Of a stretch of DNA of 64,000 bases, positions 37,879 to 62,337 are shown piece by piece. A program made the position numbers and the translations under genes. The number at the start of each line of letters is the position of its first letter. Positions within the stretch are counted from its first letter, which is position 1. Source of the DNA: Planctomycetota bacterium (lineage in GTDB: Bacteria; Planctomycetota; B15-G4; JADJEK01); the NCBI GenBank assembly GCA_052034255.1, contig JBPOIU010000020.1:777-64776 (forward strand), read 5' to 3'. The notes under the pieces were generated by a model. It was given only the letters and a program-made list of their open reading frames with translations, did no database searches and was not told the DNA's origin.

Positions 37879-40800
37879 TCAGCGCTTGCGGCGGCGGGCT
37901 GCGTCGTCGAACAGCGAGTACGCGACGGGCGTCACGACCAGCGAGAGCAGCAAGCTCAACGCTTGGCCGCCGACGATGACTTTCGCCATGTCCGCGCGGT
38001 TCGCGGCCCCCGGTCCCTCGCCCAGTGCGATCGGGATCATCGCCGCCACCAGCATCAGCGTCGTCATGAGGATCGGGCGCAGCCGCACCCGGTTCGCCTC
38101 CAGCACGATCCAATCCCGCACGATCGTCTGCTTTGCCCGTGCGGTCGAGGCCGACTCCGCCCGCGCGCGCACGGCGGCCGGAACCAGCTCCGGTCGCGCG
38201 GCGACGCGCTCGCGCAGCACGTTCGTGTGGTCGATCTGCAGGATGCCGTTCTTCTTGACGATGCCGAACAGCAGGAACAGGCCGAGCACGGAGAACAGCG
38301 TCAGCGGCTGCCCGAGCGCGATCAGCGAGATCAGCGCGAACGGGATCGTCAGCGGCACCGCGAGCAGGATCGTGATCGGATGCACGAAGCTCTCGAACTG
38401 CGCCGCGAGCACCATGTACATGAAGACCAGCGACAGGCCGAACGCGAGGAAGAACGCGCGCACGGACTCCGCTTGGTTGCGCGCACGGCCGACCGCCTCG
38501 AACCGATACGTCGGCGGCGCGTCGAGCTTCGCGAACGCCTCGAGGAACTTCTGCGACGCAGTGCCCGTCGGCATGCCGTTCACGTTGGCGACGATCGAGA
38601 TCTTGCGCGCCAGCCGCGCGCGGTCGATCTGCGCGGGCCCGAGCGCTTCGAGCGGCGTCGCCAGGTTCTCGAGCCGCACGAGAGTTCCCGTCTCCGAGCG
38701 CAATCCGATCGCGCCCAGCGCGCGGGCATCGTCGCGATCCGCGCCTTCGGCACGCAACCAGACGTCGTACTGCTCGCCGGTCGACCCATCCTTGAAGTCC
38801 GAGACGATCTCGCCGCCGACCAACGTCCGCAGCGAGGTGGACACGTCTTGCATCGTCACGCCGAGGTCGCTGGCGCGTTCGCGGTCGACATGCACGCGAA
38901 GTTCGGGCTTGCGCGTCGACAAGGTCGTGTCGACGTCGACGAGCCCGGGCAGCGCGCGCAAGCTCGCGACGATCTGCGCGGCATAGTCGTTCAGTCGCTC
39001 CAGATCCGGACCCGTCAGTTGGAACTCGAGATCCGCGTTCGCGGCGCCGCTCTGCGCGACTTTCGCCGGCTCTTGGACGCTGGTGCGCAGATCCGGGTAA
39101 TCGGCCATCATCGCGCGCACGCGCGACATGACGTCCTGCTGCGAGTACTCCGTGCGCCGTTGCTCCAGATCCTCGATGCGCACGAAGATCGTGCCTTTGC
39201 TGATCGGCCCTTCGCCCGGCGCCTGCCGCCCGGACGTGTCGCCGATCTCCGTCAACACCGACGTCACTTCGGGCCACGCGGCGAGGCGGCGCTCGATGCT
39301 GCCGAACACGTCGCTCGCCTTTTGCAGCGACCAACCCTCGGGCGTCGTGATCGCGAGTTCGAACTCCGATTGATCGTCCTTCGGCACGAAGTTGAACCCG
39401 GTGAGCGCCAACAGGCCCGGCCAGTCGAGCGCCGCCAAACGCTGCGCGCGCGCCGGATCGGAGAACGACAGCCAGCGCGAGAACGGCAACGGGAACACGC
39501 TCGCCGTCGAGACGACGGTCGCCAACACCACGAGCAAGCGATGTCGCAACGACCACGCCAAGAGGCCGAGGTACGGCGCCTCGACGATCCGCTCGTAGAT
39601 CGTCCTGCGCCCGCCTTCACCGCGCCGCGCCACCGGCTTCAGGAGCCGCGCCGACAGCATCGGCGTCAACGTCAGGCTGACCCCGAGCGACACGATCGTC
39701 GCCACCGCGCACGTGATGCCGAACGACTGCAAGAACCGCCCGACCACGCCCTCCATGAACGCGATCGGCAGGAAGATCACGAACAACGACAACGTCGTCG
39801 CGACCACCGCCAGCGTGATCTCCTTCGTGCCCTCCTCGGCCGCGGTGCGCGGATCGGCGCCTTCTTCTTCCATCCAGCGGAAGACGTTTTCGATCACGAC
39901 CACGGCGTCGTCGACGACGACGCCGATCATCAAGACCAGCGCGATCAGCGTGATGTTGTTGAACGTGAGGTCGAACGCGCGCATCACCGGGAACACGGCG
40001 ACGATCGACACCGGGATCGCCAGCCCGGCGACGAGCGTCGTGCGCCAGTCGCGCAGGAACAGCAGGATCGTGATGACGACCAGCGCTGCGCCGAGCACGA
40101 GGTGGACTTGCACCTCATGCAGCGACGCCTTGATGAAGCGCGACTGATCGCGCAGCACCGTGGCCTCGACATCGGCGAAGCCCTCGCGCGCGAGCCCCGC
40201 GGCGAGGTCCGACAGCCGCGCTTTCACGCGATCGATGACCTCGACCGAGTTGGTGCCGCTCTGCTTCATCACGACCAGCGTCACCGCCGGCACGCCGTCC
40301 AAGCGCGCCAATGAACGCGGCGGCTCGATCCCATCCTCGACGCAGTGCGCGCCGCCGAGGTCGCGGATGCGGATCGGATAGCCGTCGCGGTTGACGACGA
40401 TCAACTCGGCGAGCTCCGCCGGCACCAGCACGCGGCCCGCGGTCCGCAATACGAGTTCGCGCGTGCGTTGCTCGACGCGGCCACCCGGCAACTCGACGTT
40501 CTGTTGCGACAGGGCGCGCGCGACGTCGGCGATCGACACGCCGAGCGCTTCGAGCTTGCGCGTGTCCACGGTGACGTGGATGGCGCGCTTCTCGCCGCCG
40601 ACCACCGTCACCGACCCAACGCCGTCGATCCCGGACAAGAAGTCCGCGATGCGCTTCTCCGCGACCTCGGTCAGCTCGCGCAAGCTGCGGCGTCCCGCCA
40701 GCGCGATCGTCATGACCGGCGACGCGTCGACGTCGAACTTCTCGATGATCGGCGTACGCGTCCCGCTCGGCAGGCGCGACAGGATCGTGTTGACCTTGCT

Positions 40801-41127
40801 CTGGATCTCCTGCTGCGCGACGTCGCGGTTCTTCGACAGCAGGAACTGCACCACCACCGCGCTGACGCCCTCGGTGGTCGTACTGCGCAAATCGTCGATC
40901 CCGGCGATCGTGTTGACCGCCTCTTCGATCACCTTCGTGACGCCGATCTCCATCTCTTCGACCGACGTGCCGGGGCGGCTCGTCGTGATGGTCACGACCG
41001 GGACGTCGACGTTCGGCAACAGATCGACGCCGATGCCCTTCAGCGCGATCAGCCCGAGCACGACGGGCAGCGCGACCAGCATCACGGTGAACACCGGCCG
41101 CCGAATGCACAGCGATGCGAGGTTCAA
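37879..41127 (-). CDS. RND efflux transporter permease (HAE1/AcrB-like)
   Basis: 1082 aa. N-terminus (M)NLASLCIRRPVFTVML is typical of AcrB-family proteins. 12 TM helices plus two large periplasmic loops. TTG start overlaps the membrane-fusion-protein stop by 2 nt. Confidence 0.9.
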   Translation of the reverse strand: MNLASLCIRRPVFTVMLVALPVVLGLIALKGIGVDLLPNVDVPVVTITTSRPGTSVEEMEIGVTKVIEEAVNTIAGIDDLRSTTTEGVSAVVVQFLLSKNRDVAQQEIQSKVNTILSRLPSGTRTPIIEKFDVDASPVMTIALAGRRSLRELTEVAEKRIADFLSGIDGVGSVTVVGGEKRAIHVTVDTRKLEALGVSIADVARALSQQNVELPGGRVEQRTRELVLRTAGRVLVPAELAELIVVNRDGYPIRIRDLGGAHCVEDGIEPPRSLARLDGVPAVTLVVMKQSGTNSVEVIDRVKARLSDLAAGLAREGFADVEATVLRDQSRFIKASLHEVQVHLVLGAALVVITILLFLRDWRTTLVAGLAIPVSIVAVFPVMRAFDLTFNNITLIALVLMIGVVVDDAVVVIENVFRWMEEEGADPRTAAEEGTKEITLAVVATTLSLFVIFLPIAFMEGVVGRFLQSFGITCAVATIVSLGVSLTLTPMLSARLLKPVARRGEGGRRTIYERIVEAPYLGLLAWSLRHRLLVVLATVVSTASVFPLPFSRWLSFSDPARAQRLAALDWPGLLALTGFNFVPKDDQSEFELAITTPEGWSLQKASDVFGSIERRLAAWPEVTSVLTEIGDTSGRQAPGEGPISKGTIFVRIEDLEQRRTEYSQQDVMSRVRAMMADYPDLRTSVQEPAKVAQSGAANADLEFQLTGPDLERLNDYAAQIVASLRALPGLVDVDTTLSTRKPELRVHVDRERASDLGVTMQDVSTSLRTLVGGEIVSDFKDGSTGEQYDVWLRAEGADRDDARALGAIGLRSETGTLVRLENLATPLEALGPAQIDRARLARKISIVANVNGMPTGTASQKFLEAFAKLDAPPTYRFEAVGRARNQAESVRAFFLAFGLSLVFMYMVLAAQFESFVHPITILLAVPLTIPFALISLIALGQPLTLFSVLGLFLLFGIVKKNGILQIDHTNVLRERVAARPELVPAAVRARAESASTARAKQTIVRDWIVLEANRVRLRPILMTTLMLVAAMIPIALGEGPGAANRADMAKVIVGGQALSLLLSLVVTPVAYSLFDDAARRRKR

Positions 41128-42413
41128 GGCGAGTCCTTGCGCGCCGGCCCCGCATCCTCGGCAGCGGTCCGAGGCGCGATCGGCGGACCGTCCAATGCGC
41201 TGGCCGGCTTGACCTCGACCTCGGTCCGATCGGCGATCTTCGTCAGTCCGCTGACGATCACCGGTGCGACGCCCGAGAAGCCCTCGACGACCTCCACCAT
41301 CTCGCCGGATCGCATGCCGATGCGCACGCGATGCAACACGGCGCGACCGTCCTCCACGGTGAACACCTTCGATTCACCGACGTACGTCGCGACCGCGGCG
41401 AGCGGCACGAACGTCACGTCGGCCTCGACCCGCGTCTCGATCGCCGCGCGCGCGAAGCCGCCCGGACGCAGCGCGCCGTTCGCGTTCGCGATGCGGACCT
41501 CCACGCGGAAGGTCCGCGACCGCGCGTCGATGGTCGGCGCGACGCGCGCGACCGTGCCCACGACCGCGTCGGGCGAAGCGTCGGCCCGCACCTCCACCGC
41601 TTGGCCGACGGCGACTTCGCGGGCGTAGCGCTCCGGCACGTCGGCGATGAGGTCGATCGGGTCGTGGACGACCAACGCGAACAGCGGGTCCCCCGCGCGC
41701 ACGAACTCGCCGACGTCGACGAACCGTCGCGCGACCGCGCCGCGCAAATCGGGCGGCGCGTGGACCACGGTGTCGGCGAGGCGCTGCTCGGCGGTCTTGC
41801 GCTCGGCTTCGCGTGTGCGGGCTTCCGCGAGTAGCGCACGTGCGATCGTGATCTCCAGCTCGTGCGTCGCGATCGCGACTTGCCACTGGGTTTCGAGATC
41901 GGCGAGATCCTGATCGGAGATGACGGGCGGATCCTGGTGGAACAGCGTCGTGCCGCGGTCGTACTTCGCGCGCTCGTTCTTCACTTGCAGCGCGGCGCGA
42001 GCGACGGCCGGGACCGCGTCGACGTCGAGTTCGCCGGACGGGAACGCGTCGAGCCCGATCTTGCGCAACGTCTGGAGGACCATCGCTGCGCGCTCGGCCG
42101 ACTCGAGCTCGTACTCGACCGGATCGAGGCGCGCGAGCACCGCTCCCGGCTCGACGACGTCCCCGAGGTCGTGTTGCAGCGCGAGCACGCGACCGTCGAC
42201 CTCCGCGGAGACCGTCGCCTCACGCGCGCCGCGCAGCGTGCCGACGACGTCGACCCGACGCGTGATGCGGCGCAACTCGCTTCCTTCGACGGTGACGACC
42301 ACCTTCGAGTCGGCGGCCGCCGACTTCGCCTGATTCGCCGGGCGTGAACAGGCCGCCAGCGCGAGGATCCCGCATGCCACCCATCGCTTCCACGCGCTCG
42401 TCATTCCGGCCAT
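41124..42413 (-). CDS. RND efflux membrane fusion protein (periplasmic adaptor), lipoprotein
   Basis: Lipobox LALAAC. Coiled-coil, biotinyl/lipoyl-like and beta-barrel adaptor regions. Directly upstream of, and coupled to, the RND permease. Confidence 0.8.
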   Translation of the reverse strand: MAGMTSAWKRWVACGILALAACSRPANQAKSAAADSKVVVTVEGSELRRITRRVDVVGTLRGAREATVSAEVDGRVLALQHDLGDVVEPGAVLARLDPVEYELESAERAAMVLQTLRKIGLDAFPSGELDVDAVPAVARAALQVKNERAKYDRGTTLFHQDPPVISDQDLADLETQWQVAIATHELEITIARALLAEARTREAERKTAEQRLADTVVHAPPDLRGAVARRFVDVGEFVRAGDPLFALVVHDPIDLIADVPERYAREVAVGQAVEVRADASPDAVVGTVARVAPTIDARSRTFRVEVRIANANGALRPGGFARAAIETRVEADVTFVPLAAVATYVGESKVFTVEDGRAVLHRVRIGMRSGEMVEVVEGFSGVAPVIVSGLTKIADRTEVEVKPASALDGPPIAPRTAAEDAGPARKDSP

Positions 42414-42550
42414 CCATCCGAAGATCCGCCACGAGTCCGGCACGGTAGCAGCCGACCGCGCCCGCCGTGCGGGCCACCGCAAAACGACACGGGCCCCGGA
42501 TCCTGAAGATCCGGAGCCCGCGTCGCGCGCTTGCGCGCATCCCGCGTGGA

Positions 42551-44164
42551 TCAGGGCGCGAACACGAGCTCGAGGCCGTTGCTGAGGCCGACGCCCGCCG
42601 CCGCCGCGGGATCCGGAACCAACATCTGCAGCACGAGTTGGACGCCCGCGACTCCCGTCGGGGTCGTCGTCGGCAACGTGATCGCGCCGGAGCCGTCGAG
42701 CGGCAACACGATCGACGTCTGGAACGGGAACGCGCGCAGCGTGCCGTTCGCGTACGGAACGTTCGACGGCGGACCGACGTGGATCAACAGCGTCGCGGGA
42801 GCGAGCGGCTTGCCGTCCTCGTAGCGCAGCGTCAGCGGCGTTCCGGAGACCAGCGGGCCGGCGCCGCGCAGCTTCGCGAAACCGTTCGACGCCGCGTTCG
42901 CGCCGGTGTGGATGTTCCAGTCACCGCCATAGTTGTGGAACGCGAGCAGCGCGCCTTCGTCACTCGCGAATGCGCTCTTGCGGCCGACCAGCAGATGGAT
43001 GCCCGAGGTGGCCACCGCGGAACCGAGCTCCGCGTAGGGCGCCGCGACGAGATCGGGGAACGGCGCCTCGAGCGTCTCGCGCTCCGGCCAGTTCGGGAAC
43101 ACGAACTCGAAGCGCACGACGTCCTCGCTCGACGCCAGGTATGCCGACTGACCGAGCAGCGCGACGCCCTGACCGAAGTCGTCGCTCGGGCCACCGGCGA
43201 TCGGCAACAGCTTGCCCTTCTGCGTCCACGTGCCGATGAGGTCGAACACGTAGCCGGCGCCGCTCGCCTCGCTGTCGAAGTTCCACGCGCCCGGCGCGCC
43301 GACGATGACTCGCGTGCCGTCGATCGCGCACGACGCGCCGAAACGGCGATCGGTGACCGGATCGAGCGGGTTCAGCTCGGCCTGGATCGTCCACACCACG
43401 CCCGGGCCGGACGTGTCGCGCAACACGATGACCGCGCGACCGGAGTTGGTCCGCGGCGGCGCCACATTGTCGAAGTCCGGCGAGCCGATGACCGCGCGGT
43501 TGCCGCCGAAGTCGACCGACGAGCCGAAGTGCTCGTTCACTTGCGGACTGGTCGGAACGATCTTGCCGGTCTGCGTCCACGTGCTCGAGATGTTCTCGAA
43601 GCCGTACGCCGAACCCGAGTCCGACAGCGGCGCGTTGTCGTTCGGCGCGCCGACGACGAGATGCGTCACCTGCGCCGCGACGGCCGAGCCGAACCGATCG
43701 CCGGCCGCGGTGTCGTTGCCGTAGACCTTCTGGTCGAGCACCCAGAACGGCACGCCCATGAACACGATGCGCTGGTAGACGTAGACGGCGCCGGCATCGA
43801 CGCCGAGATCGTCATCGCCCGGCGCACCGACGTACACCGTCGTCCCCACCACGGCGACCGACGTTCCGAACTGGTCGCCCGCTTGGCCATCGCTCGCGAC
43901 GAGTCGCAGGCCGGCGCTCCATGCCCCGCCGACGTAGTCGTGGATGTAGACGCATCCTCGACTCGCGTCCTCGCCCGGCGCACCGACGATCGCGCGATCG
44001 CCGTCGACCGCGACGGACGCGCCGTACAGCGCATCGTCGTCGAGATCCGACGGCTCGATCGTGACCGGATAGACCAGCGGCCGCACGGTCTGGGCCGAGA
44101 CCGTCGCGACCAGACACGAACACACGGACGCGAACGTCCACAACACGCGCAGCGACGACTTCAT
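42551..44164 (-). CDS. secreted FG-GAP-like repeat beta-propeller protein with the shared C-terminal domain
   Basis: ATG at 44164 with GGAGAG at 7-nt spacing. Signal peptide MKSSLRVLWTFASVCSCLVATVSA. Repeats of the type FG(A/S)SVA..GD.AIVGAPGDD. C-terminus ends SNGLELVFAP. Confidence 0.75.
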   Translation of the reverse strand: MKSSLRVLWTFASVCSCLVATVSAQTVRPLVYPVTIEPSDLDDDALYGASVAVDGDRAIVGAPGEDASRGCVYIHDYVGGAWSAGLRLVASDGQAGDQFGTSVAVVGTTVYVGAPGDDDLGVDAGAVYVYQRIVFMGVPFWVLDQKVYGNDTAAGDRFGSAVAAQVTHLVVGAPNDNAPLSDSGSAYGFENISSTWTQTGKIVPTSPQVNEHFGSSVDFGGNRAVIGSPDFDNVAPPRTNSGRAVIVLRDTSGPGVVWTIQAELNPLDPVTDRRFGASCAIDGTRVIVGAPGAWNFDSEASGAGYVFDLIGTWTQKGKLLPIAGGPSDDFGQGVALLGQSAYLASSEDVVRFEFVFPNWPERETLEAPFPDLVAAPYAELGSAVATSGIHLLVGRKSAFASDEGALLAFHNYGGDWNIHTGANAASNGFAKLRGAGPLVSGTPLTLRYEDGKPLAPATLLIHVGPPSNVPYANGTLRAFPFQTSIVLPLDGSGAITLPTTTPTGVAGVQLVLQMLVPDPAAAAGVGLSNGLELVFAP

Positions 44165-44387
44165 CTCCGTACTCTCCATAAAGTTGAATCGCGGCGCGCA
44201 CGGCGTGCATCGAAGAAGCGGCACGCGTCCGGACGCGTGGACCCATTGCCTGGGCCCACGGTCCGCGACAGCAGCGGCGCGAATCCCGTTGGGGCGTCAA
44301 GCCCACATCCGCGCGCGCGGCGGCGGATCACGGCGAAAATCGAGTCGATTTCGCGAATCCTGCGGGGGTCGGAGCCGGCACGGCATC

Positions 44388-46862
44388 ATGGATCGCGTGA
44401 CGACCATCGACGAAGACTCGCCCATCGACGCCGTGCTCGAGCGCCTGCCGCAACTCCACCGGCTGGCGCACGCGTTGACGCACGACCCCGCCGCTGCCGA
44501 CGACCTCGTGCAATCGACGGTCGAGATCGCGCTGCGCAAGCCGCCCACGTTGCGCGCGGCATGGCCTTCGTGGCTCGGGCGCGTGATGACCAACCTGGCC
44601 CGACAACGCGGCCGCGGCGAGGTTCGCCGCCGCTGGCGCGAACGCCTGGTCGCGGCGCCCGAAGCCCTCGAATCGACCAGCGCCCTGGTGGAGCGCCACG
44701 ACATCCGCGTGCGCTTGATGCACGCGGTGCGCGCCCTCGACGAGCCGTACCGCCGCGCGGTCCTGCTGCGCTACTTCGAGGACTTGCCGGTGCGGGCGAT
44801 CGCCGCGCGCGACGGCATTCCGCACAAGACCGTCGAGTCCCGCCTGACGCGTGGGCTCGCGAAGCTGCGCGAACGACTCGATCACGAGCACGCGGGCGAT
44901 CGCCGCGCCTGGCTCGTCGCGCTGGCTCCGTTCGCAAAGGCCATGCACACCCCCCTCACGCTTGCCGGAGTCGTGGTCATGAAGTCGTTCGCCGTCTCAT
45001 TGGGCGTGTTGACTCTGGTGTGCACCTCGTGGTGGATGCTGCAGGACGACGAGCCCGCGACCCCGCCGACGCCCCCGACCGCCGCCGCGGCCGAACGCAA
45101 CGAAGCTCACGACGCCACGCCCACTCCGTCGGCGCCGCCGAATGAGATCGCTCGCACCGAGACGCCCACGGAACCGGCGAGCGAAGCACCGGCGGTTCCT
45201 CTACTGCGCGGCCTCGTGCTCGACACCGAAGGCAAGCCCGTCGGCGGCGTCCGCCTGAGCGTCGCCGTCCGGGACGCCACCGCGCTCGAGTTCACGCTGG
45301 TCAGCGACGCCGACGGCCGTTTCTCGCTCCCGGCGCGTGAGGCCGCTCTGGACATCGCGGCAGCGGACCCGCGGTACACGACTGTTCTCGAAGCGGCGAT
45401 CATGCGCACACCGAACCTCACGCAGCCGCGCGAAGTGCACGTGATCGTCGCGGCGAACACGCGCATCGAAGGTCAGGCGGTCGACCCGTCGGGCACGCCG
45501 ATCGCGGAGGTCGCGGTCGAACTCGCGCCTCCGGACGCGGTCCGGGCGTTGTTCGCCATCGATCTCAGCGCCAATCGTGCCCGCACGCTGACCGCGTCGA
45601 CCGACGCGAATGGCCGCTTCGTGTTCGAAGCCGCGCCGGCCGTCGCGGGCTCGCTGTGCTCGGGGACGAAATCGGGGTACGTCGCGGCGACGGAGGTCGT
45701 GCGGACGTTCCCGCGCAGCGATCTCCGACTCGTGCTGAGCCGGCCCACCGATCAAGCGACGCTGCGCGGCATCGTCTACGACCCGACGGGGATTCCGCTC
45801 GAAGCGGCCTACCTCGCGCTCGGCTCGCTGCCGACGCGCTCCGACGCGAACGGCATGTTCACGTTCGAATACCCGCGCGCGGAGCCACCGGAACGCCTGC
45901 TCGCGGTCGCGCCCGGGCTGAGCGCCAAAACGTTGGAGCGCCCCGCCGAGGAATGGCCGGCCTTCGTCGAACTGCGGTTCGAAGGCGCCGCGCCGAGCAT
46001 CGACGGTGTCGTCTACGGCCCCGACGGCCAGCCGAAGCCGGGCGCGAACGTGTGGATCGACGAGCCGACCGTGTTCGGCCAAAGCAACGGCAACTTCTGG
46101 CTCGCCGAGTGCATCACGAGCGGGTCGACGGCGATGCAGCACGGCGCCACGACCGACGCCGCGGGCCGCTTCCGGATCGAGGGTCTCGTCCAGCGAGAGT
46201 ACGGACTGCGCGCCGTCATTCCCGAACTCGCTTGGCAGATCGACGCGGGACGCGCGCAGGCCGGCGACGCGGGCGTCGAGATCCGCTTCCCCACTGCGAG
46301 CTTGCACGAACGGATCGAAGGCCGCGTGCAGGATGGTCGAGGCCACCCCGTCGCCGACATCGACGTACGCGTCACGGCGATGCTGCCCGTCGCCGCGGAC
46401 CCCGTGTCGCTGCAACGCTTCTTCGACAGTGTGGTCGGGTCCACCTCGCGTTCCCGCGCCGACGGCCGATTCACGCTGAACGACGTCCCGATCGGCGCGC
46501 AGATCGAGGCGATCGGACCGGGACTCGAAATGGACCCGACGTGGACGGTGCCGACCACGCTGCCGGATCCGATCGTGCTGCAGGTGTACCGGCGCTTCGC
46601 GTTCCGCGTCGAGCTGACATCGACGCCACCCGGCGCCGCGTACGTCGCATTGCGCGACGTCGACGACCGCGAGGTGCCGATGACGCGCTTCTCGCCCGGT
46701 CGCGTGGACGTCCTGCCGCGCGTCGCGCTCGTCGACGGCCGCTCCGAGCGCATGACGACCCAAGACCGCGCGACCCAGTTATTGGTACTCGACGAGCGGT
46801 TCGCCGAGCTCGTGCGCATCCCCATCACGTACGCCGGGGACGAAGTCACGGTCGTGCGCTGA
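44388..46862 (+). CDS. ECF sigma factor fused in frame to a TM helix and about 600 aa of periplasmic CarboxypepD_reg-like repeats
   Basis: Sigma-70 region 2 (DDLVQSTVEIALRK) and region 4 (YRRAVLLRYFEDLPVRAIAARDGIPHKTVESRLTRGLAKLRERL). About 30 aa downstream lies the TM helix MKSFAVSLGVLTLVCTSWWML, then five units of the type LRGxVxDxxGxPxxgaxVxv...dGrFxf. No stop separates the sigma and membrane parts. Confidence 0.7.
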   Translation: MDRVTTIDEDSPIDAVLERLPQLHRLAHALTHDPAAADDLVQSTVEIALRKPPTLRAAWPSWLGRVMTNLARQRGRGEVRRRWRERLVAAPEALESTSALVERHDIRVRLMHAVRALDEPYRRAVLLRYFEDLPVRAIAARDGIPHKTVESRLTRGLAKLRERLDHEHAGDRRAWLVALAPFAKAMHTPLTLAGVVVMKSFAVSLGVLTLVCTSWWMLQDDEPATPPTPPTAAAAERNEAHDATPTPSAPPNEIARTETPTEPASEAPAVPLLRGLVLDTEGKPVGGVRLSVAVRDATALEFTLVSDADGRFSLPAREAALDIAAADPRYTTVLEAAIMRTPNLTQPREVHVIVAANTRIEGQAVDPSGTPIAEVAVELAPPDAVRALFAIDLSANRARTLTASTDANGRFVFEAAPAVAGSLCSGTKSGYVAATEVVRTFPRSDLRLVLSRPTDQATLRGIVYDPTGIPLEAAYLALGSLPTRSDANGMFTFEYPRAEPPERLLAVAPGLSAKTLERPAEEWPAFVELRFEGAAPSIDGVVYGPDGQPKPGANVWIDEPTVFGQSNGNFWLAECITSGSTAMQHGATTDAAGRFRIEGLVQREYGLRAVIPELAWQIDAGRAQAGDAGVEIRFPTASLHERIEGRVQDGRGHPVADIDVRVTAMLPVAADPVSLQRFFDSVVGSTSRSRADGRFTLNDVPIGAQIEAIGPGLEMDPTWTVPTTLPDPIVLQVYRRFAFRVELTSTPPGAAYVALRDVDDREVPMTRFSPGRVDVLPRVALVDGRSERMTTQDRATQLLVLDERFAELVRIPITYAGDEVTVVR

Positions 46863-47066: not shown

Positions 47067-47119
47067 TTCACGGCCTCTCAGAGGCCGTGAACGTGAATCA
47101 ATCAGTTTGATTCACGTTC
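47067..47119. repeat. adjacent perfect palindromes in the convergent intergenic region, overlapping the BatD stop codon
   Basis: TTCACGGCCTCT-c-AGAGGCCGTGAA (12-bp arms) is directly followed by GAACGTGAATCAA-tcag-TTGATTCACGTTC (13-bp arms). A third half-site CAGAGGCCGTGAA lies at 46905..46917. Lower GC than the flanking DNA. Confidence 0.5.
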
Positions 47120-48652
47120 TCCTAGCGCGTCGTCCAACGCCGCGAGCCAAGCGCGCGCCTCGCCTGCTGCCGCGGGAACGGCGGGACCGCCGTAGCGTGC
47201 CGCCACGCAGCGCGCCAACCAATCCCCGACGCGCACCGCGAGTTCGTCCGGCACGCCGCGCGCGCGCAGCTTGGACGCGAGATCGGGGCCATGCACCGAC
47301 GGCGCGGGCACGGCGAGTCGTGCGGCGAGCCACGCAACCACGGCGCGCTCCGCGTCGCGGTCGAGCGCGGCCTCGCAGCGTGCGAGTTCCGCGCCCCGAT
47401 CGATCGCGACCGGCGGTTCGACACGCAGTCGAACCGCTGGCGACGCGCGGCCGCCAGGCCGCGACCCGGACGCATGCGTTCCGTCGCTCCGCGTCGACGG
47501 CGCCGCGCCCGCGTCCGCGCCGCCACGATGTCCGAGCGTCCGCCACACCAGAGCGAGCACCATCGCGACGAGCACGCCGACGACCCACGGGGTCCCGAAA
47601 CTCGAGCCGTCCCCAGCTTCCGCCGAAACCTCGTCGACGAACTCCCCCGCGTCGTCCGCGACGCCAGGCGCTTCGAGATCCAACCGCGTCGCGCCCGATG
47701 CGTGCGGTCGAACGATCAGCGGCAGCGGCGCGGTCGCGGCTTCGACGTAGCGACCACCGTCCGCTGGATCGAACCACGCGCAACGCAGCGGCGGAATCTC
47801 GCGGACGTCGGCGTCGGTGGCGACGAGCGTCCAATCGAAGCGCCGACCGTCGACTTCGTCGCGGACCAACACGCCGCGCACGTGGAAACCGGACAACTTC
47901 CGCGCATCCGGTGGCACGACGTCGGCGAGATTGCCTTCACCGCTCAGTGTTCCGGACAGCACCAGCTCGTCCCCGACGGCGACGTCGCGCGCCGTCGTCG
48001 TCGCGGACCACGAGAACCGGCCGATCGCGCCGCAAAACGTGTCCGGCACGCCCGCGGTGGGCAGCGGCTTGACCTGGACGACCTCGGATGCGCCATCGAT
48101 GGCGGTCTCCACGCGATCGACGGGGGTGCGCCCGCGGAACAGGTCCTCCTCGAACCGCGTCGCCGATGCGAACTCGAGTCGCGGCGCCGTCCACGTCAGC
48201 GCTCCGGGCTCTCGCGCGATCACCGCGAACGGGACTTCGAGCACGAGATACGGCAAACCGTCGACGATCCGCACGCCACGCCGCGCCGCGGGAACCACGT
48301 CGTCGTTGCAGCCGATCGTCGCGCTCTCGCCGCTCGGGACGAGTCGTCGGATCGTCAGGCGCTCCGAGGACGCGCTCGACGCGGCGCTCGACAGATCGCT
48401 CGCGATCACGCGGACCGGCACGTCCGCCGCGCGTTGGAACATCGGCACCAAGCGGTCACGCACGAGCGACGGCTCCAGCCCGCACCGCACCGTCACGACG
48501 AACGACTCGCCGACGAACACGGAGCGCGTCCCGGCGTCGAGCGCGACGAAGCCACGCGCGTCGCCGCCGCACGCGACGCCGTGGCCGACCGCGCCGATCG
48601 CCAGCGAAAGCGTCACGAGCCATCGACGCAGCCCTTGCCTCGCCGCGATCAC
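47102..48652 (-). CDS. BatD-like protein (Bat operon)
   Basis: GTG start at 48652 overlaps the TPR gene stop (GTGA). Signal/TM helix near the N-terminus and a TM helix near the C-terminus (WVVGVLVAMVLALVW). Last gene of the MoxR/vWA operon. Confidence 0.55.
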   Translation of the reverse strand: MIAARQGLRRWLVTLSLAIGAVGHGVACGGDARGFVALDAGTRSVFVGESFVVTVRCGLEPSLVRDRLVPMFQRAADVPVRVIASDLSSAASSASSERLTIRRLVPSGESATIGCNDDVVPAARRGVRIVDGLPYLVLEVPFAVIAREPGALTWTAPRLEFASATRFEEDLFRGRTPVDRVETAIDGASEVVQVKPLPTAGVPDTFCGAIGRFSWSATTTARDVAVGDELVLSGTLSGEGNLADVVPPDARKLSGFHVRGVLVRDEVDGRRFDWTLVATDADVREIPPLRCAWFDPADGGRYVEAATAPLPLIVRPHASGATRLDLEAPGVADDAGEFVDEVSAEAGDGSSFGTPWVVGVLVAMVLALVWRTLGHRGGADAGAAPSTRSDGTHASGSRPGGRASPAVRLRVEPPVAIDRGAELARCEAALDRDAERAVVAWLAARLAVPAPSVHGPDLASKLRARGVPDELAVRVGDWLARCVAARYGGPAVPAAAGEARAWLAALDDALGERESN

Positions 48653-49347
48653 CAATCCCGCTCCCCGGTCGCGGGACGTGTCGCGCGCACGCGTTGCCGC
48701 AGCGCACGCTTCATGCGCTCCTTGGTGTCGAGCCGATCCAACAGCTCGAGGACACGCTGCGGCGGCAGTTCGTCGAGCGCCGCATCGAGATCGCGGTTCT
48801 CCGCGCGCGGATCGTTCGCCGGCGGCGGATCGGGTTCCCGTTCGGGCGGCGGCGTCTCGCGCTCGCGCCGCATGCGTTCCAGGTCGGCGATCCGACGCAA
48901 CGCGCGTTCGACGTTGCGGCGCGCCTGCGGCCAGTCGGCCCGCGTGATCGCGGCTTCCTGCCACCGCTCGCGCGCACGCACGGCCTGCGCCAGCGCGATG
49001 TCGAGCGCGAAACTCTCGGCCTCCGGACCGCTCGCTTGCGCCAACGATTGATCGCAGCGTGCGAACGCGACGCTGCCTTCGACGAACCGACAAAAGCCCG
49101 TGAAGGCGTCCGGCGCGCGGGCGGCCGCTGCTTGCGCGGCGGTCTCTGCTTGCGTCAACGCTCCGGCGCGCAGCGCGGCCAACGCGAGATTCGCGTGCAA
49201 CTCCGCCGGGGCGTCTTCGCCCGCGCGCTCGATCGCCGCACGGAACTCGACGGCCGCTTGCTCGAACCGCCCCGCGCGATACGCGTCCAAGGCAGTCACG
49301 AACGACGCCGCGGCCAACGCGACGCTCCACGCGAACACGGAGTTCAT
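48649..49347 (-). CDS. TPR-repeat protein (BatC-like)
   Basis: Signal peptide MNSVFAWSVALAAASF. TPR-like helices. ATG overlaps the BatB stop (ATGA). Confidence 0.6.
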   Translation of the reverse strand: MNSVFAWSVALAAASFVTALDAYRAGRFEQAAVEFRAAIERAGEDAPAELHANLALAALRAGALTQAETAAQAAAARAPDAFTGFCRFVEGSVAFARCDQSLAQASGPEAESFALDIALAQAVRARERWQEAAITRADWPQARRNVERALRRIADLERMRRERETPPPEREPDPPPANDPRAENRDLDAALDELPPQRVLELLDRLDTKERMKRALRQRVRATRPATGERDW

Positions 49348-50360
49348 CGCGGACTCCGCTCGGCCCAGGCCGCCTCGATCCACCATGCGACGGCGGCGAG
49401 CAGGGTCAACGCGAGCAGCGCCGACACCCCTTCACCGCCGTCCGCAGTCGCGACGCGAGCCGACGGCATCGCGCCGGTCCGCAAGACGTCGACGACGGCG
49501 TCGAGCGGATCGTTCCCGTCGACGAAGCGGCCTCCGCCCGCCTTCGCGAGCGCGACCAAACCCGAGCGATCGAAACGAGTGACCACGTCGTCGCCGCTTC
49601 CATCGCGCACGAAGCGTGCTGTGCCGGCTGGCCCGTGCTCGACCACCGAGATCTTCGCACCGAGCGCCGTGCCGAGCCCGACGCACGACACGGTGACGCC
49701 ACCCTCCGCGCACCAGCGCGCGGCGTCCGCGCCACGCCCCGCCAGATCCTCGCCATCGCTGAACAGCAGGATCGTCCGCGGCGTCTTCGCGGCGCGCGTC
49801 GGACCGAAGGCGCCCGCCGCGGCCTCCAAGGCCGTCGCGAAATCGGTGCCGCCTCGCCGCGGCAGGTCGGTCCCGACGTCGTCGAGCAGCTCGTGGAACG
49901 TCGCCCGGTCGTGCGTCAGCGGAATCGACGTCTGCGCATCGCCGGCGAACGTGACCAACGCGAAGCGGGCATCGTCGCGCGCGTCGACCAAGCGATGCAC
50001 GAGAGTTCGCGCGCGTTCGAGTCGACTCGGCGCGAGATCCTGCGCGAGCATCGAACGCGAGACGTCCAGCACGATCACCACGTCGGCGAACGCGGTGTCG
50101 GCGTCCGCCGGCTCGAAGCGCCGCGGCGGCGCCGTGGCGACGATCCACGCGGCGACGGCGCCGAGCGTGAACATCGCGATGCGTGCACGATGCATCCGGC
50201 GGCGCGGCGGCAGCGCGGCGGCGACGCGCGCGCCCACCGCGTCGCGCTTGCGCGCGTCTTGAGCCCGCAGCGCGCTCCACCACGCCCCGGCAAGCACGCC
50301 GATGATCGCGACTCCGAGTGCGAGCGTCGCCTCGTCCGCCACCAGACCCGGGGCGTTCAT
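49344..50360 (-). CDS. vWA domain protein (BatB-like)
   Basis: N-terminal TM helices. vWA MIDAS VIVLDVSRSM (DxSxS) and TFAGDA. C-terminal TM helix. ATGA overlap with the BatA stop. Confidence 0.8.
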   Translation of the reverse strand: MNAPGLVADEATLALGVAIIGVLAGAWWSALRAQDARKRDAVGARVAAALPPRRRMHRARIAMFTLGAVAAWIVATAPPRRFEPADADTAFADVVIVLDVSRSMLAQDLAPSRLERARTLVHRLVDARDDARFALVTFAGDAQTSIPLTHDRATFHELLDDVGTDLPRRGGTDFATALEAAAGAFGPTRAAKTPRTILLFSDGEDLAGRGADAARWCAEGGVTVSCVGLGTALGAKISVVEHGPAGTARFVRDGSGDDVVTRFDRSGLVALAKAGGGRFVDGNDPLDAVVDVLRTGAMPSARVATADGGEGVSALLALTLLAAVAWWIEAAWAERSPR

Positions 50361-51370
50361 GTCACGCCCTCCAGCACCCAAACCCGCATGGCGCGCGCGA
50401 GCGCGAACAGCGCCAACGCGCACGCGGCGAACCACGCGCCGCGATCTTCGTAGACGCGCCGCGGCAGAGTGGCCGCCGCGTCTTCCAATGCATCGATCGC
50501 CGCGTAGACGTCACTGAGTGCCGACGCGTCGCGAGCGGCGTAGAAGCGACCGCCGGTGAGGCTCGCGATGCGCTCGAGCGGGCGCGTGTCGATCGCTTCG
50601 AACGTTCCGGCGCCGACGACCGTCGGCGCATAGCGTCCGAGCCCGGCCGCGATCGCATCGACACGCACGTCGAGCGCGGCACACAACTGCGCCGCGTGAA
50701 CCGGTGTGATCTCGTCCTTCGCGTCCGGCGTACCGACGTTCTCCTCGCCGTCGGTCAGCAGGATCACGACCTTCGAGCGCTCACTCGCGCGCCGCAGCAG
50801 AGCGGCGCTGCGCGCGAGCGCGGCGCCGATCCCGGTCGCGTCCTCCTCGCCATCGGCTTCGACCCAGCGGATCCCGTCCAACGCGGCGCGCAGCGCGCGG
50901 TGATCGAGCGTGCACGGTGACACGACGTCGGGGAAGCGCGCGAACGTGACGATGCCGATGCGGTCGTTCGGACGCGCGTCGATGAACCGCCGCGCGGCGT
51001 CCTTGACCACGGCGAGCCGTGGCCGCTCGGGATCGAGGTCCTTCGCGGTCATCGACGACGACACGTCGAGGCACAGCACGATGTCGATCCCCTCGTGCCG
51101 CGTCGTCTCCTCGACGCCGATCCGCGGCCGCGCCAACGCCGCGAAGATGAACACCAGCGCGACGCACTCGACGAGACGCGGCCACGGCGCGAGTCGCGTG
51201 CGCCAGGTCGCCGGCAGGTCATCGAGGAACGGAAACGGCGCGAACGGCACGGCGGCAGGCCGACCGCGCGAACGCAGCCACAGCGCGAGAGGGGCCAACG
51301 CGCAAGCCCACAGGAACTGCGGCGCGCCGAAGCGCAGATCGAGAAGATCGGGCAGATCGGGCAGGTTCAT
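50357..51370 (-). CDS. vWA domain protein (BatA-like)
   Basis: N-terminal TM helix. vWA MIDAS IVLCLDVSSSM. LLTDGEEN. C-terminal TM helix. ATGA overlap with the upstream gene. Confidence 0.8.
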   Translation of the reverse strand: MNLPDLPDLLDLRFGAPQFLWACALAPLALWLRSRGRPAAVPFAPFPFLDDLPATWRTRLAPWPRLVECVALVFIFAALARPRIGVEETTRHEGIDIVLCLDVSSSMTAKDLDPERPRLAVVKDAARRFIDARPNDRIGIVTFARFPDVVSPCTLDHRALRAALDGIRWVEADGEEDATGIGAALARSAALLRRASERSKVVILLTDGEENVGTPDAKDEITPVHAAQLCAALDVRVDAIAAGLGRYAPTVVGAGTFEAIDTRPLERIASLTGGRFYAARDASALSDVYAAIDALEDAAATLPRRVYEDRGAWFAACALALFALARAMRVWVLEGVT

Positions 51371-52281
51371 GCCCGGAGCTCCCGCGCGGCGAACCACGAC
51401 GTGAAGAACGCCCGCAGCGTTGCCGACGCGTCCTCCGCCTCCGCCTGCGTGGCCCCGTGCTCGGCGAACTTCACGCGATCGGCGAGCCGAAGCAGGCGGC
51501 CCAACTCCGCGCTGCCGACTTCGACGGTGGCCGTGGTGATCACGCCGTCGCCGGTCAACTCCTCCGTGGTCCGCTCGAGCGCTGGGATCCCGCCTTCGAC
51601 CTCGAGGCACTCGCGCGCGAGTCGGGCCCACGCGGCGATCGCCGCGCTCGGAACCGTTGCGTCGACGGCTGCCGCATTGCCGAGCCAGACGTCGACGCGC
51701 GAGCGTTCGCCGGCCGCCCGCGTGTCGCCCCGACGGCGGCCATGGGCTCGCACGAGCAACGCGAACACCAGCGCGAGACCGACGCCGAGCATGACCCACC
51801 AGCGCGCGTGCGACGTCGGCTCGGGGAATGGCTCTCCGGGCAACTCGGGAACGCCCGCGTCGTCCGCGGGAAGCGACGAGGTCACGCGGAGCTCGAGCCC
51901 GTGACCGAGCGCGGGGATGACCTCACCGTCGCCGTTCTGCGCTCCCCAACGCGGCTTCTCGATCCGCACGACGTCGCGCTCGAACGCATAGGCGTCGAAG
52001 CGGATCGTCTCGACCACGACACCGTCGTCGACGCGCGACGCGCGGTCGGTCTCGCGCACGACGAGCGGCGCGAGAGCCGCGTCGTCCCACGGTTGCGGGC
52101 GCAGCGACTCCGTGAAGCGTCGCTCCACTTCGAGCGTGAACCGCTCACCGAACTCGACCGCGGTGACGTCGGGCACGATGCGCAGTCGCTGCGACACTTC
52201 CGGTAGCGGATCGATCACCACCGTCAGCACGACGAAGGCGCCTTGGAGCAACGCCAGCGGGCGATCGCGGCGCAGCGTCAT
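51367..52281 (-). CDS. hypothetical membrane protein of the MoxR/vWA operon
   Basis: N-terminal and central TM helices (ALLQGAFVVLTVVI; WWVMLGVGLALVFALLV). ATGA overlaps on both sides. In Bat operons this slot often holds a DUF4381-like protein. Confidence 0.5.
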   Translation of the reverse strand: MTLRRDRPLALLQGAFVVLTVVIDPLPEVSQRLRIVPDVTAVEFGERFTLEVERRFTESLRPQPWDDAALAPLVVRETDRASRVDDGVVVETIRFDAYAFERDVVRIEKPRWGAQNGDGEVIPALGHGLELRVTSSLPADDAGVPELPGEPFPEPTSHARWWVMLGVGLALVFALLVRAHGRRRGDTRAAGERSRVDVWLGNAAAVDATVPSAAIAAWARLARECLEVEGGIPALERTTEELTGDGVITTATVEVGSAELGRLLRLADRVKFAEHGATQAEAEDASATLRAFFTSWFAARELRA

Positions 52282-62262: not shown

Positions 62263-62337
62263 TCCCTGGTAGCTCAATGGTAGAGCACCCGGCTGTTAAC
62301 CGGGTTGTTGTAGGTTCGAGCCCTACCCGGGGAGCCA
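62263..62337 (+). tRNA. tRNA-Asn: tRNA-Asn (anticodon GTT), CCA encoded
   Basis: Cloverleaf folded by hand. Acceptor stem TCCCTGG/CCGGGGA with one G-U pair. Anticodon stem CCCGG/CCGGG with loop CTGTTAA, giving anticodon GTT. T-arm GTAGG-TTCGAGC-CCTAC. 3' GCCA. Confidence 0.85.

Follow-up and report, generated by a model that had tools for sequence, protein, structure and literature searches.

Sigma factors of the extracytoplasmic function (ECF) type provide bacteria with a major route for transducing signals, and their fused one-component forms are the least understood. Among those forms, only IutY has been dissected experimentally. This protein of the Pseudomonas putida aerobactin cell-surface signalling system consists of a sigma domain, a single transmembrane (TM) helix and a periplasmic domain, and it is activated by sequential cleavage by Prc and RseP (PMC5411451). 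Truncation of the periplasmic part makes it constitutively active, and this activity is RseP-dependent (PMC5411451). Release from the membrane has also been proposed for the planctomycetal group ECF57 (supplement of 10.1101/2019.12.11.873521), and the same release has been predicted for the actinobacterial groups ECF52 and ECF53 (PMC8999054; supplement of 10.1101/2019.12.11.873521). ECF57 (Jogler 2012, Casas-Pastor 2021) is described with an invariant cysteine pair, one Cys in sigma2 and the other in sigma4, and about two TM helices (supplement of 10.1101/2019.12.11.873521). Some of its subgroups have WD40 or homeodomain-like extensions, and CarboxypepD_reg was noted in the context of subgroup s3 (10.1101/2019.12.11.873521). 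Here we describe a gene for an 824-amino-acid (aa) protein with an ECF sigma domain, a TM helix and a rod of beta-sandwich domains. It lies in a 64,000-nucleotide (nt) stretch of DNA from a Planctomycetota bacterium (assembly GCA_052034255.1, contig JBPOIU010000020.1, positions 777 to 64,776), which we refer to as the window and whose positions are used throughout.

A preliminary description of this gene had implied that the fusion was novel. The architecture is real, but IutY, ECF57, ECF52 and ECF53 precede it. What appears to be new is a conserved candidate internal translation start at the membrane anchor, whereas the design of sigma factor, TM helix and periplasmic part in one polypeptide was already known. 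We found no report in the literature of an internal start that divides a sigma domain from its own membrane sensor. Taking all of the evidence together, we consider it somewhat probable that this is a one-component, membrane-tethered ECF sigma factor that is freed by regulated proteolysis, and that many members of its family have a second start.

The fused protein and its family

The gene is one uninterrupted frame of 824 codons with neither a stop codon nor a frameshift, as first described, and the same open gene is present in three assemblies (for coordinates, see Table 1). In the open reading frame (ORF) listing of the window, the frame begins with a TTG at 44184 and runs without a break as far as the stop codon at 46860-46862. 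We placed the start at the ATG at 44388, which gives 824 aa. The same start is used by the called orthologues of 824-825 aa in three independent assemblies, and conservation in the alignment with orthologue loci sets in just 5' of this ATG.

Judged by sequence, the protein is a bona fide ECF (group 4) sigma factor. A Pfam scan of the 824 aa matched Sigma70_r2 at residues 19-77 (30.4 bits, cut-off 24) and Sigma70_r4_2 at residues 108-160 (46.3 bits, cut-off 25.7), with no match to sigma region 3 or region 1. NCBIfam TIGR02937 (sigma70-ECF) scored 61 bits against a cut-off of 42.9. The sigma domain has ~165 aa (residues ~12-167) and aligns across both of its domains with the solved M. tuberculosis SigE and SigH.

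The protein is also a CarboxypepD_reg repeat protein, both by gathering score and by its transthyretin-like beta-sandwich fold. Pfam CarboxypepD_reg (PF13620) matched five stretches with 109 bits (cut-off 32.3), and the approximate bounds of the domains are residues 272-349, 350-452, 456-531, 538-634, and 639-726. An AlphaFold2 model built with a 78-sequence family alignment had a mean pLDDT of 84.7 and a pTM of 0.62. The sigma domain (12-167) was confident, a helix at 172-185 moderately confident and the TM segment of low confidence. The stalk was disordered (pLDDT <50 at 215-260), and six confident beta-sandwiches followed within residues 272-824. Of the earlier count of five beta-sandwich units, the five CarboxypepD_reg domains stand, but the model adds a sixth at the C terminus (729-824), for which there was no Pfam match at E ≤ 10. 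Its strands have pLDDT >90, and it is kept end to end in the best 150 relatives. The recurring motif, first written D(A/T)(D/N)GRF, is present at residues 307, 406, and 486 in the form D(A/T)(D/N)G(R/M)F, with variants at 589 (DAAGRF) and 690 (ADGRF). Six beta-sandwiches on a 50-residue proline-rich stalk could span the periplasm, bind envelope polymers or proteins, or report damage.

Only one hydrophobic stretch, residues 189-218, has a 19-residue Kyte-Doolittle mean above 1.6. Its flanks, as read from the sequence, are net positive before the helix and acidic after it, as expected of an N-in/C-out topology. Of the 78 sequences of the family alignment, 61 share W215, and a conserved Trp at the outer end of the helix fits a membrane anchor. 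Cleavage by signal peptidase, weighed by sequence only, seems the less likely reading. We rejected the TM segment as that of a lipoprotein, because the clade-specific Cys212 has V or L at -1 and there is no lipobox. Pfam, TIGR02937, and hydropathy agree with the outline first given of this protein, in which one chain carries an entire ECF sigma domain, a TM helix ~30 residues on and CarboxypepD_reg repeats outside the cytoplasm. There is no further sigma gene and no CarboxypepD_reg paralogue within the window.

A missing stop codon or a frameshift in the assembly could have joined a sigma gene to a downstream membrane-protein gene. Long open frames come easily in high-GC DNA, which has few stop codons, the window has many spurious ORFs, and some database relatives are short (177-323 aa). 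However, the uninterrupted gene is present in the assemblies of three different sequencing runs, in orthologues at 99%, 61%, and 60% identity, and it recurs far beyond them. A word-index search found 139 homologues of up to ~1,385 aa, and Sigma70 and CarboxypepD_reg were recorded together in nearly all of the 120 listed. An exhaustive HMMER search found 1,743 protein clusters (50% identity) at E ≤ 1e-30. Almost all of the best 150 were end-to-end matches of ~810-900 aa. Where both elements could be placed (114/120 homologues), the TM helix starts a median of 29 residues past sigma4. A degenerate, hand-made DNA pattern for ERLD-x4-GDRRAW collected 41 loci in GTDB species-representative genomes and 30 in JGI metagenomes. 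In these 71 loci, every sufficiently long ORF has a hydrophobic segment 3' of the motif, except for one metagenome match (L080). The preliminary description had proposed that orthologues be compared, taking parts that are always split as a sign of an assembly error; we found the fusion uninterrupted in hundreds of relatives. We give an artefact next to no chance. The sequences effectively refute it and indicate a real, conserved gene.

As for the short sigma-only relatives (177-323 aa), we considered them as natural split versions and rejected this, because the two contigs that we inspected were both error-prone long-read assemblies, and both cases were artefacts. On the first contig, the rest of the gene follows out of frame, and neighbours such as FtsK are fragmented too. 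On the second, family alignments continue past the called stop.

By the sequences collected here, the family is large, and hardly any of its members lie outside the uncultured Planctomycetota. The word-index homologues came from Planctomycetota metagenome-assembled genomes (MAGs), except for one Kofleriaceae entry, and the GTDB pattern loci were nearly all in Planctomycetota MAGs, with two copies in some genomes. Two strict-pattern members each were found in SMAG_U10131, GW928_bin.9, GFS_1590, PMV_8.5, and binchicken_co97_508. A further pair (L017 and L032) is on contig CAYJMF010000010.1, and in one case the two members are separated by ~2 kb of a single contig. The two-member genomes point to paralogous expansion of the family within genomes. 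Such expansion has been reported for planctomycetal ECFs with C-terminal extensions (PMC7671368).

Some variants differ in the rod. Some genes that look complete stop soon after the TM helix: L026 (281 aa) and P0133 (285 aa; contig of 1.66 Mb) comprise the sigma domain, the sigma4-adjacent motif, the TM helix, and a ~60-residue tail, without the beta-sandwich rod, and may be minimal forms or assembly errors. Among proteins at least 90% identical to that of the window, several assemblies from different runs have the gene as two pieces, one of 570 aa (residues 1-570) and one of 242 aa (from Met583). In these strains the Trp571 codon (TGG, window 46098-46100) is evidently a stop, which removes the outer 2.5 rod domains. 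By analogy with truncated IutY, the W571-stop form could be a constitutively released sigma factor, or it could be a pseudogene.

A candidate internal start at the membrane boundary

The preliminary description had noted an internal ATG, placed at 44977 with GGAG at 11-nt spacing, and had dismissed it as having a poor ribosome-binding site. The ATG is in fact two nucleotides further on and the spacer is 8 nt, which is the commonest spacing at real gene starts in sister contigs. The dismissal does not hold up, because comparative evidence points to selection for this start. The codon is that of Met198. Its alignment column has Met in 44/78 and Val in 17/78 family members, and the M-K-x-K and hydrophobic stretch that begin there resemble the N terminus of a signal-anchor protein.

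We scored a Shine-Dalgarno (SD) sequence as GGAG or GAGG 5-11 nt before a start codon. In a set of 26 loci, it preceded the TM-proximal Met in 16 (mode, 8 nt), versus 20 of 281 (7%) other in-frame ATGs of the same genes (Fisher p = 1e-10), and the rule was satisfied at 9.7% of all codon positions. With the metagenome loci added, 36/64 members were positive at the TM boundary, 29 with SD and ATG and seven with SD and GTG. A spacing of exactly 8 nt is kept with few exceptions. When the members were grouped by single linkage at 60% identity, 23/39 clusters were positive for SD and start (binomial p = 8e-14 versus a 10% background).

Codon usage tells the same story. The Gly codon at -4 from the Met is GGA in 25/29 cases and never GGC, versus a background in family genes of 13.8% GGA (13% with G next) and 51% GGC. 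Where the peptide has changed (E-G or E-V for G-V), GAGG is kept nevertheless, and at two loci ATG is replaced by GTG with GGAG-N8 intact. GANTC methylation, which we considered as the cause of the GGAGTC sequence, does not account for it: in members with GGAGCC, GGAGTA or GAGGGC the SD core is still there, but GANTC is not.

By the same rule, an SD precedes 23/59 (39%) of the real gene starts on the family contigs, mostly at a distance of 6-8 nt. At the 5' start of the sigma gene itself, only 6/69 members have one, an approximate figure because most of these start codons were inferred, and at the own start of the window gene GGAG is 13 nt away (44368-44390). A gene caller also picked the TM-proximal ATG on a 5'-truncated contig (P0299). 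These comparisons suggest a second product in many members: in the case of the window gene, a sigma-less protein of 627 aa that begins at Met198. That form is probably made more efficiently than the full-length protein, and in excess over it.

Possibly, though we are doubtful of it, the internal GGAG-N8-ATG is not a working start, so that only the full-length protein is made. It might be left over from an ancient event that fused a sigma gene to a downstream membrane-protein gene, and then the likeness of MK.K and the following hydrophobic stretch to a signal-anchor N terminus would be expected, as would the low-complexity, variable-length linker before the Met, which resembles translated former intergenic DNA. 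Or it might serve as a translational pause. The full signal is missing in 28/64 members, which is also in keeping with either. However, a relic would not retain a rare synonymous GGA (25/29 versus the 14% expected) across clusters below 60% identity, nor would it swap ATG for GTG with the SD retained. Real gene starts carry such a signal about as often, and a pause ahead of translation of the TM segment has no obvious use.

If the internal start is used, it would be a new way to set the ratio of tethered regulator to sensor from a single ORF, and it would explain how such proteins do without an anti-sigma factor. One version of this, which we think rather unlikely, is a two-product device. Few sigma-tagged copies, from the weak 5' start, would co-assemble in the envelope with many sigma-less copies from the strong internal SD-ATG, and the sigma-less form would replace an anti-sigma factor by protecting or diluting the tagged one. 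Release of sigma would then report damage to, or occupancy of, the assembly made by its own gene.

Proposed tethering and release of the sigma domain

A helical anti-sigma domain has roughly at least 70 residues, often with HxxxCxxC. The gap of ~30 residues that separates sigma4 from the TM helix here is too short to hold one. Residues 165-275 have no Cys/His zinc-finger motif and match no Pfam family at E ≤ 10, and residues 1-211 contain no Cys whatever. The sequence scan and the Pfam search were thus both empty, in agreement with the preliminary description that no anti-sigma zinc finger lies between the two parts. We also found no anti-sigma gene or family among the neighbours in seven contexts (the window, three orthologue loci, and distant members), which fits a self-contained regulator.

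The short segment is nevertheless conserved in part. After sigma4 comes a motif of ~25 residues, LRERLD..H(G/A)GDRRAW..AL.P(L/F), in which R161 is conserved in 78/78, L164 in 76/78, W175 in 70/78, and L179 in 58/78 sequences (alignment A2). The AlphaFold pLDDT is ~77 at residues 171-180. A low-complexity linker of very variable length follows, and then the block G-x-(L/V)-(L/V)-M-(K/N)-x-K, which precedes ~20 hydrophobic residues and the conserved Trp. The motif may act in autoinhibition, as a helix at the membrane interface or as a site for protease recognition.

An autoinhibitory role would make the HGGDRRAW..AL.PL segment a miniature built-in anti-sigma factor that folds onto sigma2/sigma4 and blocks core binding, with relief either with or without proteolysis. 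Apart from the sigma core, no part of the protein is more conserved than this motif (R161 and W175 above all), it is modelled as a helix with moderate confidence, and other ECF groups have short regulatory C-terminal extensions. The variable-length linker parts it from the TM helix, which makes it a distinct element and not part of the anchor. Even so, its ~15-25 residues are far shorter than any described anti-sigma domain, and the alternatives are just as open to it: a helix at the membrane interface, a site recognized by a protease, or a contact to RNA polymerase. We regard a miniature anti-sigma factor as improbable.

ToxR and CadC are membrane-bound one-component activators. Like them, the sigma domain might never be released and might recruit RNA polymerase at the membrane, with the rod modulating it by conformation or oligomerization. 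The lack of an anti-sigma domain and the distance of only ~30 residues from sigma4 to the membrane are compatible with this, and the conserved juxtamembrane helix could pass on a conformational signal. However, sigma factors have to sit deep within the RNA polymerase holoenzyme, for which a ~30-residue tether is sterically demanding. IutY, the one characterized protein of such a layout, needs RseP cleavage, and only its TM-less variants are RseP-independent. Action from the membrane, which the preliminary description had also raised, seems to us quite unlikely.

By analogy with IutY, activation by proteolytic release, as suggested in the preliminary description, is plausible. In the tethered and released sigma factor that we favor, the tether would hold the sigma domain off productive transcription. 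The periplasmic rod would sense a signal, by binding a ligand or polysaccharide or through envelope damage, and would be trimmed. A site-2 protease would then cut inside the membrane and free the sigma domain, as in P. putida IutY. The freed sigma factor would probably transcribe its own gene via a conserved upstream element and, in the clade of the window, perhaps the divergent FG-GAP gene. Ribosomes would also start at the internal SD-ATG and produce a sigma-less anchor and rod protein, probably in excess.

The upstream element, GAATCC-N8-CGTCAAGCCCACATCCG, is the only long upstream block conserved with the loci at ~60% identity (L001 and L002), and it occurs once in the window. In several other clades, (A/T)TTCC-N8/9-CGCCAAC lies 36-44 nt 5' of the start, preceded in the largest clade by GGAAC or GAAAC. 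CGCCAAC is in eight upstream regions versus 0.7 expected, and the single k-mers enriched upstream are CGCCAAC, GAATCC, and GTCAAG. These sequences offer a weak lead to an ECF-type autoregulatory promoter. The divergent FG-GAP gene is a candidate target or regulon member. Its arrangement with the sigma gene and a Bat-like operon is common to L001-L003, orthologues down to 60% identity.

Several observations count against the reading that we favor, in whole or in part. We infer cleavage, release, signal, and regulon for every member of the family. The FecR-like domain and TonB-dependent receptor partner of IutY are absent here, so the trigger must differ. The sigma4-adjacent motif could be autoinhibitory, which would change the mechanism. 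At the TM boundary, both the start codon and the SD are missing in ~14 of the 64 members, and a further 14 show ATG but no SD, so the internal start is common but not universal, and it does not define the family. An unbiased bipartite (-35/-10) search of the upstream regions found nothing above shuffled controls, and the element spacing in the clade of the window is not that of a canonical -35/-10 promoter. Finally, the FG-GAP link is restricted to close relatives, because four distant members sit among unrelated genes and the FG-GAP gene is absent beside them.

Neighboring genes and comparison with known systems

The features of the gene and its surroundings are collected in Table 1. The Bat-like operon includes genes for a large protein without a Pfam match, a TPR protein, and two vWA proteins, of which one has an N-terminal BatA domain; in orthologous loci it also has a DUF58 protein. 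The sole RNA gene in the window, by Rfam and ARAGORN, is a tRNA-Asn (GTT) at 62263-62337 (+).

Table 1. Features of the sigma factor fusion gene and its neighbors (window positions)
Feature	Position	Strand	Details
RND efflux pair	37879-42482	-	AcrB-family pump (1082 aa, 796 bits) and HlyD-type membrane-fusion protein; upstream of FG-GAP gene
Secreted FG-GAP repeat protein	42551..44164	-	537 aa from ATG 44164; Pfam FG-GAP_2, 188 bits; divergent from sigma gene
Intergenic element GAATCC-N8-CGTCAAGCCCACATCCG	44281..44311	+	107 to 77 nt 5' of start codon; candidate autoregulatory ECF-type promoter/operator
Full coding sequence, membrane-anchored ECF sigma factor fusion	44388..46862	+	824 codons and stop
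Sigma region 2	44442..44618	+	Residues 19-77; Pfam Sigma70_r2
Sigma region 4	44709..44882	+	Residues 108-165; Pfam Sigma70_r4_2
Sigma4-adjacent family-specific motif	44865..44936	+	Residues 160-183; includes short helix 172-185
Internal SD-like GGAG	44967..44970	+	Rare Gly194 codon GGA and G of Val195; 8 nt before ATG 44979
Internal in-frame ATG (Met198), candidate second start	44979..44981	+	627-aa sigma-less product MKSFAVSLG...
TM helix, N-in/C-out	44985..45041	+	Residues 200-218; hydropathy; conserved Trp215 at end
Periplasmic stalk, Pro/Thr/Ala/Glu-rich	45042..45197	+	Residues 219-270; composition; predicted disordered
Five tandem CarboxypepD_reg (transthyretin-like) beta-sandwich domains	45201..46565	+	
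Sixth C-terminal beta-sandwich	46572..46859	+	Residues 729-824; AlphaFold; without GRF motif
Bat-like (Bacteroides aerotolerance-type) operon	47102-51799	-	Converges on sigma gene; syntenic in L001-L003

The design of a sigma domain, TM helix, and sensor without an anti-sigma factor is thus widespread in uncultured Planctomycetota, where the family is very large and a genome often has several members, and the transthyretin-like rod is a sensor module not previously tied to sigma signalling. The source name of every word-index homologue was "sigma-70 family RNA polymerase sigma factor," a current label that hides the membrane-sensor part and the possible second product.

Of the described proteins, this one would work most like IutY (ECF243), yet it is outside that system. 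Both are one polypeptide with a cytosolic ECF sigma domain, a TM helix directly after it, a large periplasmic domain and no separate anti-sigma factor. However, the periplasmic part of IutY is an anti-sigma domain of the FecR type, and its partner is the TonB-dependent receptor IutA, encoded next to it, whereas there was no FecR family in the Pfam scan of the 824-aa protein and no receptor gene among the neighbors in the seven contexts. IutY has also been described as unique, whereas the family here has >1,000 clusters.

By taxon and layout, the nearest published group is ECF57. Its restriction to Planctomycetes, a TM-containing C-terminal extension, and the absence of an anti-sigma factor all apply to the present family, the first of them with few exceptions. 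What sets the family apart from the published description of ECF57 is that the window protein has no Cys in its sigma domain, one TM helix and a CarboxypepD_reg rod. In residues 1-170 of the 78-sequence alignment, only one column has at least five Cys (9/78), so there is no conserved Cys pair. ECF52 and ECF53 (e.g., SCO4117 of Streptomyces coelicolor) are similar in having a sigma domain, a TM helix, a proline-rich extracytoplasmic region, and a putative carbohydrate-binding domain. They differ in that an anti-sigma-like zinc-finger segment separates their sigma domain from the TM helix, and they belong to another phylum and have other sensor domains.

With pairs of the sigmaE-RseA type, the protein shares its logic: sensing takes place in the periplasm, the anchor crosses the membrane once, and cleavage at site 1 and site 2 is probable. 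Those are two proteins, however, in which a cytoplasmic anti-sigma domain binds sigma. Here a covalent tether replaces binding, and no anti-sigma remnant would be left to degrade after cleavage. For the internal start, the parallels are genes in which in-frame internal starts give two isoforms, such as CheA-L/CheA-S, IF2 alpha/beta, and ClpB. The likeness is an in-frame SD and start inside the ORF and a predicted N-terminally shortened second product. In the present family, the support for that product comes from comparative sequence statistics.

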